Shown here: one piece after another, positions 61,394-61,707 of the stretch
Numbering within the stretch: the stretch's first letter is position 1
Layout of the letters: every line of letters starts with the position of its first letter
Assembly: GCF_054482595.1 (NCBI RefSeq)
Contig: NZ_CM137008.1
Length of the DNA stretch: 64,000 bases
Direction: 5' to 3' (one strand)
The notes under the pieces: model-generated
What the model was told of the DNA's origin: nothing
The model's input: the letters and a program-made list of their open reading frames with translations, nothing else
Database searches by the model: none
Made by a program: the position numbers and the translations under genes

Positions 61394-61503
61394 TGTGCTT
61401 CCTCATTATGGTGACGCATACATAGCGTTCTCATTTCGTGCGCACATTGTAAACCAGAGTTGCGAAGGTACAAAAAATTAACGTTTTAGCAATAGCTATA
61501 TAA

Positions 61504-61519
61504 TATAGCCTGTGCTATA
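61504..61519. promoter_or_regulatory. Candidate MntR operator in mntS promoter region
   Basis: tATAGCctgtGCTATa palindrome with the same ATAGC-N4-GCTAT half-sites as the MntR box I recall from mntH. Confidence 0.5.
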
Positions 61520-61578
61520 TCTGTATGTAATGCAATCATCCCTCAAGGATCGACGGGATTAGCAAGTCAGGAGGTCTT

Positions 61579-61707
61579 ATGAATGAGTTCAAGAGGTGTA
61601 TGCGCGTGTTTAGTCATTCTCCCTTTAAAGTACGGTTAATGCTGCTCTCTATGTTGTGCGATATGGTCAACAACAAACCGCAGCAAGATAAACCTTCCGA
61701 TAAATAG
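61579..61707 (+). CDS. mntS: Small protein MntS (42 aa)
   Basis: Not in ORF track (under 60 aa); ATG at 61579 preceded by AGGAGG; translates to MNEFKRCMRVFSHSPFKVRLMLLSMLCDMVNNKPQQDKPSDK. Confidence 0.85.
   Translation: MNEFKRCMRVFSHSPFKVRLMLLSMLCDMVNNKPQQDKPSDK

Follow-up and report, generated by a model that had tools for sequence, protein, structure and literature searches.

The 314-bp feature at 61394..61707 of the window, by which we mean the whole 64,000-nt stretch of DNA that was analyzed, is almost certainly the mntS (rybA) locus of E. coli in its canonical form, together with an MntR operator. MntS, MntR and MntP already constitute the textbook circuit for manganese homeostasis in E. 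coli, and current understanding is therefore unchanged: both the mntS gene and its repression by MntR are known and characterized. Our additions are modest. The operator consists, on the reading developed below, of two conserved boxes, one on either side of the -10 hexamer, and the same operator DNA is found at MntS-like sitA genes of the Yersiniaceae. The locus is also of some methodological value, as it illustrates that a sub-threshold ORF can be correctly recognized from sequence alone, and that ORF-length cutoffs conceal real, functional small proteins.

Identity and coding status of mntS

The original prediction had placed a 129-nt ORF encoding the small protein MntS at 61579..61707 on the plus strand, and the ORF is present at precisely this position, with an ATG start, 42 codons and a TAG stop; its product is MNEFKRCMRVFSHSPFKVRLMLLSMLCDMVNNKPQQDKPSDK. 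When compared to the NCBIfam equivalog NF033226 (small_MntS), this product scored 96 bits over residues 1-39 of 42, relative to a cutoff of 36. The alignment to K-12 mntS that the original prediction had called for returned 100% identity with b4705, and the K-12 protein YP_009029995.1 is identical to the MntS of the window, confirming that the encoded protein is MntS. The identity to K-12 MG1655 extends over 480 bp (61381..61860) comprising the promoter, the ORF and the 3' region, and coordinates were converted by subtracting the window position from 914576 to give the K-12 coordinate. In the K-12 annotation mntS (b4705) spans 852869..852997, inside the ncRNA gene rybA (b4416), with mntR (b0817) divergent, and the neighboring genes opgE, mntR-ybiR and ompX form the identical set in the window. 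Thus, K-12 mntS/RybA displays no difference from the window locus and is the same gene.

Although the gene had been described as unannotated, this was true only of the ORF track that accompanied the original prediction, while in RefSeq it is labeled mntS. The 314-bp feature was matched in 5,421 of 5,426 complete E. coli genomes, with at least 80% query coverage in 5,391, and all among the matches listed are annotated as mntS ("manganase accumulation protein MntS"). The profile search of the ORF identified no MntS family in Pfam, and a 42-codon ORF alone is unremarkable by chance, with 62 ORFs of at least 20 aa found in 4 kb.

As anticipated, a perfect AGGAGG ribosome-binding site precedes the ORF on the plus strand (61569..61574), and is separated from the ATG by the 4-nt spacer TCTT. 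In an alignment of 76 sequences AGGAG (61569..61573) was invariant, and G61574 was ~90% conserved. The combination AGGAGG-N3-9-ATG was found twice in the 64-kb window, in each instance opening an ORF of at least 40 codons, compared with 0.56 expected in shuffled sequences. The divergent orientation relative to mntR was likewise borne out. The ORF at 60926..61393 on the minus strand is annotated in RefSeq as mntR, the first gene of mntR-ybiR; its 155-aa product scored 269 bits relative to NCBIfam NF008273 MntR (cutoff of 153), and contains the Pfam domains Fe_dep_repress and Fe_dep_repr_C. The first intergenic base, 61394, is the left edge of the feature, and the mntR ORF begins one base earlier.

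We examined conservation of the locus in 80 species-level Enterobacteriaceae loci, using MntR as the anchor. The divergent mntR-mntS pair was retained in 77 of the 80 species, with a mntR-mntS distance of 180-191 bp in nearly all; the exceptions were 2 truncated loci and one insertion (Citrobacter sp. R56). The ATG was kept in all 78 of the mntS ORFs, whose lengths ranged from 41 to 44 aa. Comparison of 573 pairs yielded a mean dN of 0.119 and a mean dS of 1.004, corresponding to a dN/dS of ~0.12, and the variable columns within the first 34 codons were distributed 17/11/31 over codon positions 1, 2 and 3, respectively. This low dN/dS, together with the excess of variation at third positions, indicates that the MntS protein is under clear purifying selection, and that mntS, judged by its substitution pattern, is evolving as protein-coding sequence.

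These findings bear directly on whether the locus might represent solely the non-coding small RNA RybA, with the 42-codon ORF being incidental. We regard this as very improbable, despite the fact that the K-12 ncRNA annotation rybA covers the region, that both the 5' UTR and the 3' region contain conserved hairpins (see below), and that a report exists of RybA repressing the aromatic amino-acid genes aroF and aroL during peroxide stress (Gerstle 2012, cited in PMC11878033). Aside from the substitution pattern, the universally retained ATG, the invariant Shine-Dalgarno core, the narrow range of ORF lengths and the match to an NCBIfam equivalog all argue against it. Moreover, the manganese phenotypes have been attributed to the MntS protein and are Hfq-independent, the protein was described as "conserved and expressed", and Mn-MntR was found to repress mntS (PMC4361602). 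The cited literature also reports detection of the MntS peptide, as well as loss of the manganese phenotype in a start-codon or frameshift mutant. That the RNA has a dual function is possible, and would not conflict with our view that the locus is mntS, encoding the MntS protein.

The mntS promoter and its probable MntR boxes

The mntS promoter (PmntS) contains a perfect and highly conserved -10 hexamer, TATAAT, at 61499..61504 on the plus strand, 7 nt upstream of the K-12 RybA 5' end. A candidate -35 element, the weak TTAACG (61478..61483, plus strand), is separated from it by a 15-bp spacer and lies in a conserved block (61468..61483), the assignment being suggested by its sequence and conservation. 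PmntS was not called by the consensus promoter scan of the window because this -35 is weak.

The original prediction had pointed to a palindrome with MntR-box half-sites at 61504..61519. This sequence, tATAGCctgtGCTATa, has the form ATAGC-N4-GCTAT, as in K-12 mntH and mntP, and its core (61505..61518) spans positions -7..+7 relative to the mntS/RybA start. Since the transcript begins at 61512, inside the palindrome, and only half of it is transcribed, the site acts as DNA rather than as an RNA hairpin. While this proximal box was correctly recognized, a second box had been missed: by means of a one-mismatch search we identified an MntR-like box, TTAGCaataGCTAT, at 61486..61499, which lies 19 bp further upstream and at -26..-13 relative to the mntS start, with one mismatch to the motif in E. 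coli. The TATAAT is bracketed by the two boxes, and the distal box overlaps its first base.

Both boxes are conserved. The 64-kb window contains a single exact copy of the ATAGC-N4-GCTAT motif (61505..61518), compared with 0.05 expected, and within 783 kb of Enterobacteriaceae sequence surrounding mntR, 92 occurrences were counted in mntR-mntS spacers and 3 elsewhere. The proximal core was found in 77 of 77 species, with its CTGT spacer exact in 72 and variant in 5. A match to the distal box was obtained in 75 of the 77, at an offset of 19 bp every time, and in 15 it was a perfect ATAGC..GCTAT. In the per-base conservation profile the boxes were 90-100% conserved, relative to 10-70% in much of the spacer; together with the -10 hexamer and the Shine-Dalgarno sequence, they appear as footprints in an otherwise variable spacer.

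Published reporter experiments are in line with the proximal box being an MntR operator. A PmntS-egfp reporter was repressed specifically by Mn(II), and only with MntR present, and the manganese response of PmntS reporters was lost in a mntR deletion (PMC9806134). That the palindrome is instead a chance inverted repeat, or the site of another regulator such as Fur, would accord with the frequency of short palindromes in AT-rich promoter regions, with the co-regulation of mntH by Fur, and with a downstream stretch, TGTAATGCAATCAT, which by eye is loosely Fur-box-like. However, neither chance nor Fur readily accounts for a motif so rarely expected per window, for its recurrence upstream of K-12 mntH and mntP, for its near confinement to the mntR-mntS spacer, or for the dependence of the reporters on mntR, and within the 5' UTR the Fur-like stretch belongs to the less well conserved portions. 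We therefore attach hardly any weight to this explanation.

The distal box calls for more caution. It is possible, albeit on balance unlikely, that only the proximal palindrome is an MntR operator, and that the TTAGC..GCTAT box is kept merely as promoter-spacer sequence. Because the distal box overlaps the first -10 base, promoter constraints apply to it, and its conservation could partly reflect constraints on the promoter spacer. Its mismatch in E. coli, its more variable spacer, and its degenerate form (TTTGC..GCTAT) in the sitA promoters of Rahnella and Chimaeribacter are likewise consistent with such a view. On the other hand, sigma-70 spacers are normally poorly conserved, whereas here both half-sites recur in almost every species at an exact offset and at times as a perfect box, and mntP likewise pairs a TTAGC..GCTAT box with a perfect one. 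These comparisons lead us to favor the interpretation that the distal box is also bound by MntR.

A model in which MntR acts through both boxes can be outlined as follows. The sigma-70 promoter with its perfect TATAAT (61499..61504) would start the RybA/mntS mRNA at 61512. At high intracellular Mn2+, Mn-loaded MntR on both boxes would block RNA polymerase, while under conditions in which manganese is scarce MntR would leave and the mRNA would be made. The strong AGGAGG would then drive translation of the 42-residue MntS, which would bind and inhibit the exporter MntP, leading the cell to retain manganese. As both boxes overlie the core promoter, MntR most likely represses by simply occluding RNA polymerase, and the box positions (-26..-13 and -7..+7) fit exclusion of the polymerase by a bound repressor; occupancy of the 2 boxes and repression by promoter occlusion are inferred. 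With respect to the last step, MntS has been found to bind and inhibit MntP, and to self-associate with manganese (bioRxiv 10.1101/2023.06.02.543501).

Several further observations concern the DNA around the boxes. Directly after the proximal box, at the RybA start, positions 61519..61533 (ATCTGTATGTAATGC) were invariant or nearly so in 76 sequences. This stretch lies outside the 14-bp box core, the Shine-Dalgarno sequence and both hairpins; possible reasons for its conservation include extended MntR contacts, constraints on the initially transcribed region, or a role at the RNA level. In Citrobacter sp. R56 (locus L015, ~4885), AT-rich foreign DNA begins exactly after ATATAGC, the first half-site of the proximal box, and no mntS was found within 5 kb. 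In Leclercia adecarboxylata (locus L040, 4570..4900), an insertion of ~250 bp lies between the -35 area and the boxes, with the boxes, the -10 hexamer and mntS remaining intact.

The promoter of mntR-ybiR (PmntR) was located with the help of a published transcription start. The SMRT-Cappable-seq supplement gives a b0817|b0818 start at K-12 position 853136, forward (PMC6131387), which corresponds to position 61440 on the minus strand of the window. Its -10 hexamer, TACAAT (61451..61446, minus strand), resides in a conserved block, CATTGTAAACC, that shows no variation in the loci of Rahnella and Chimaeribacter either. A candidate -35, TTGTAC (61468..61473, minus strand), with a 16-bp spacer, is suggested by the published start taken together with the conserved block at 61468..61483. 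With the mntR-ybiR start at 61440, PmntS and PmntR are back-to-back rather than overlapping, their starts lying 72 bp apart and their candidate -35 elements back-to-back. The consensus scan had produced a minus-strand match, ATTACA(61531)-18-TATATT(61502), which would make a mntR promoter overlapping PmntS face-to-face and place the 2 boxes over both promoters; it was rejected on account of the published start. A second minus-strand match from the scan, ATGAGA-18-CATAAT (61434..61405), was rejected as well, being poorly conserved and such that its use would remove the mntR Shine-Dalgarno sequence.

Relative to the mntR-ybiR start the MntR boxes are centered at about -52.5 and -71.5, which places them upstream of PmntR and not over it. 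The two-box operator might be bidirectional, inherited intact from an ancestral mntR-sitABCD arrangement, with Mn-MntR tuning mntR-ybiR by autoregulation, but we consider this unlikely, and the literature searched contained no description of operator-based mntR-ybiR autoregulation for E. coli. An RpoS-holoenzyme peak was observed by genomic SELEX in the rybA-mntR spacer (PMC5493296).

The RybA transcript and its structure

Conversion of the K-12 coordinates of RybA/mntS (b4416, 340 nt; 852725..853064) by means of the 100% identity alignment places this transcript at 61512..61851 on the plus strand of the window. Seven RybA species, ranging from 205 to ~400 nt and sharing their 5' end, have been described (PMC4361602). 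The SMRT-Cappable-seq table contains no mntS entry, and transcript boundaries determined by RNA-seq (852035..852271; PMC4681348), apparently given in coordinates of an earlier genome version, are too imprecise for the mntS start. Rfam returned no match over the locus, either at E values up to 1 or at gathering thresholds, which probably reflects the lack of a RybA family in Rfam and not an absence of the RNA. Elsewhere in the window, Rfam matches at the gathering level were obtained for RybB (25756..25834, plus strand; 104 bits) and naRNA4/CssrE (9685..9765, minus strand; 72 bits), while tRNA genes were found nowhere in the 64 kb.

The predicted fold of the complete RybA transcript is no more stable than those of shuffled sequences (z = -0.6). 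Two local hairpins are nonetheless conserved. The first, in the 5' UTR (61539..61557, plus strand), was identified in the minimum-free-energy fold and pairs TCCCTC with GACGGG around the loop AAGGATC. In 74 sequences 89.8% of its cells were paired, with compensatory changes in 4 of the 6 pairs, and it was missing in one species. The second is GC-rich (GCGGCGT-CGCGGT-ACGCCGC; 61707..61726, plus strand) and its 5' end coincides with the final base of the stop codon. It was near-invariant, with 97.5% of cells paired in the 74 sequences and rare compensatory changes.

The second hairpin likely serves as a terminator, or forms the 3' end, of the short RybA isoform (~205 nt). The tail that follows it is the T-rich TTCATTTTTCTGTC in most genera, in which hairpin and tail together could plausibly act as an intrinsic terminator, and TTCACTCCTGCTTT (61728..61741) in Escherichia. 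This Escherichia tail is probably the reason why the terminator scan of the window failed to call the 61707..61726 hairpin, and may likewise explain the presence of several read-through isoforms (205 to ~400 nt) in E. coli.

Three additional features of the transcript region were noted. The Escherichia tail includes CTCCTG, which is complementary to CAGGAG of the Shine-Dalgarno region and is paired with it in the minimum-free-energy fold; as it involves 6 nt only, this pairing could be due to chance. RNAalifold proposed a different pairing, of the Shine-Dalgarno sequence and start codon (61570..61585) with codons 9-14 (61607..61620), but since only one-sided changes from G-C to G-U were observed, and the SPF motif encoded on the 3' side is itself under coding constraint, the comparison gives no support for a structure controlling translation, nor does it argue against one. 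Further downstream, a strongly conserved promoter-like site, TTGACC-17-TATCTT (61828..61856, plus strand), overlaps the 3' end annotated for the long RybA isoform (61851); with opgE (61979..63562) downstream of it, this site probably represents the promoter of opgE.

Comparison with other MntR targets and with sitA loci

The MntR operator of mntH, AAACATAGCAAAGGCTATGTTT, is like that of mntS an ATAGC-N4-GCTAT inverted repeat with A/T-rich flanks, positioned close to the gene start. In K-12 DNA we located this motif just upstream of the mntH start, as gaaACATAGCaaagGCTATGTttt, and the K-12 mntH promoter carries it as AACATAGCAAAGGCTATGTT. In contrast to mntS, which has 2 boxes placed 19 bp apart around the -10 hexamer, mntH possesses one box in the stretch examined. 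The K-12 region upstream of mntH (locus L003, 3688..3777) also contains a small ORF, ypeD (b4819), which overlaps the mntH start. The mntH MntR box falls within the ypeD coordinates, making this another small-protein gene embedded in a manganese-regulated leader.

A closer parallel to the box pair is provided by mntP, which in K-12 DNA has TTAGCcaaaGCTATGTT and ACATAGCttagGCTATAT, 40 bp apart and far upstream of the gene. As at mntS, one box is of the TTAGC..GCTAT type and the other is a perfect ATAGC..GCTAT, and the distal mntS box resembles the TTAGCcaaaGCTAT box upstream of mntP. The 2 genes differ in the placement of their boxes, which at mntP are situated ~370-420 bp upstream of the start codon and at mntS lie over the core promoter. 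They also differ in the direction of control, as MntR activates mntP and represses mntS.

The MntS protein itself has a counterpart outside of the Enterobacteriaceae loci described above. A tblastn search of plasmids with MntS returned the N-termini of SitA-type metal-binding proteins encoded on megaplasmids in two Yersiniaceae genera, Rahnella and Chimaeribacter. MntS can be aligned over its full length with residues 1-42 of these SitA proteins (31-33% identity), and the core S-P-F-x-(L/V)-R-L-M-L is common to both. Whereas MntS stands alone, the peptide in Rahnella and Chimaeribacter is the start of a complete periplasmic binding protein whose gene precedes sitBCD, and no remnants of mature SitA were found downstream of mntS in the window. 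The AxA cleavage motif is moreover missing from MntS (Wright et al.). The annotation of these sitA genes is itself of interest: in RefSeq, SitA starts 24 codons downstream of the MntS-like ATG in Rahnella (locus L085, 4001..4073) and 20 codons downstream in Chimaeribacter (locus L086, 4001..4061). The upstream ATG has its own Shine-Dalgarno-like sequence, use of the annotated starts would cost the signal peptide its MntS-like half, and these starts have probably been mis-called in both genera.

The similarity extends into non-coding DNA. In Rahnella and Chimaeribacter mntR is also divergent, opposite sitABCD, and the mntR-sitA spacers contain a proximal box, ATATAGCCTGTGCTATA, that is identical to that of mntS, its spacer included, with a distal GCTAT half-site 19 bp upstream. 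On the mntR side, these spacers contain the same CATTGTAAACCA block as the mntS locus. Wright et al. proposed that MntS descends from a SitA signal peptide, arguing from the protein and from gene neighborhoods; the shared operator is not mentioned in their text. The presence of the same operator DNA upstream of sitA in the mntR-sitA spacers of Rahnella and Chimaeribacter adds non-coding evidence that supports an origin of MntS from the SitA signal peptide.
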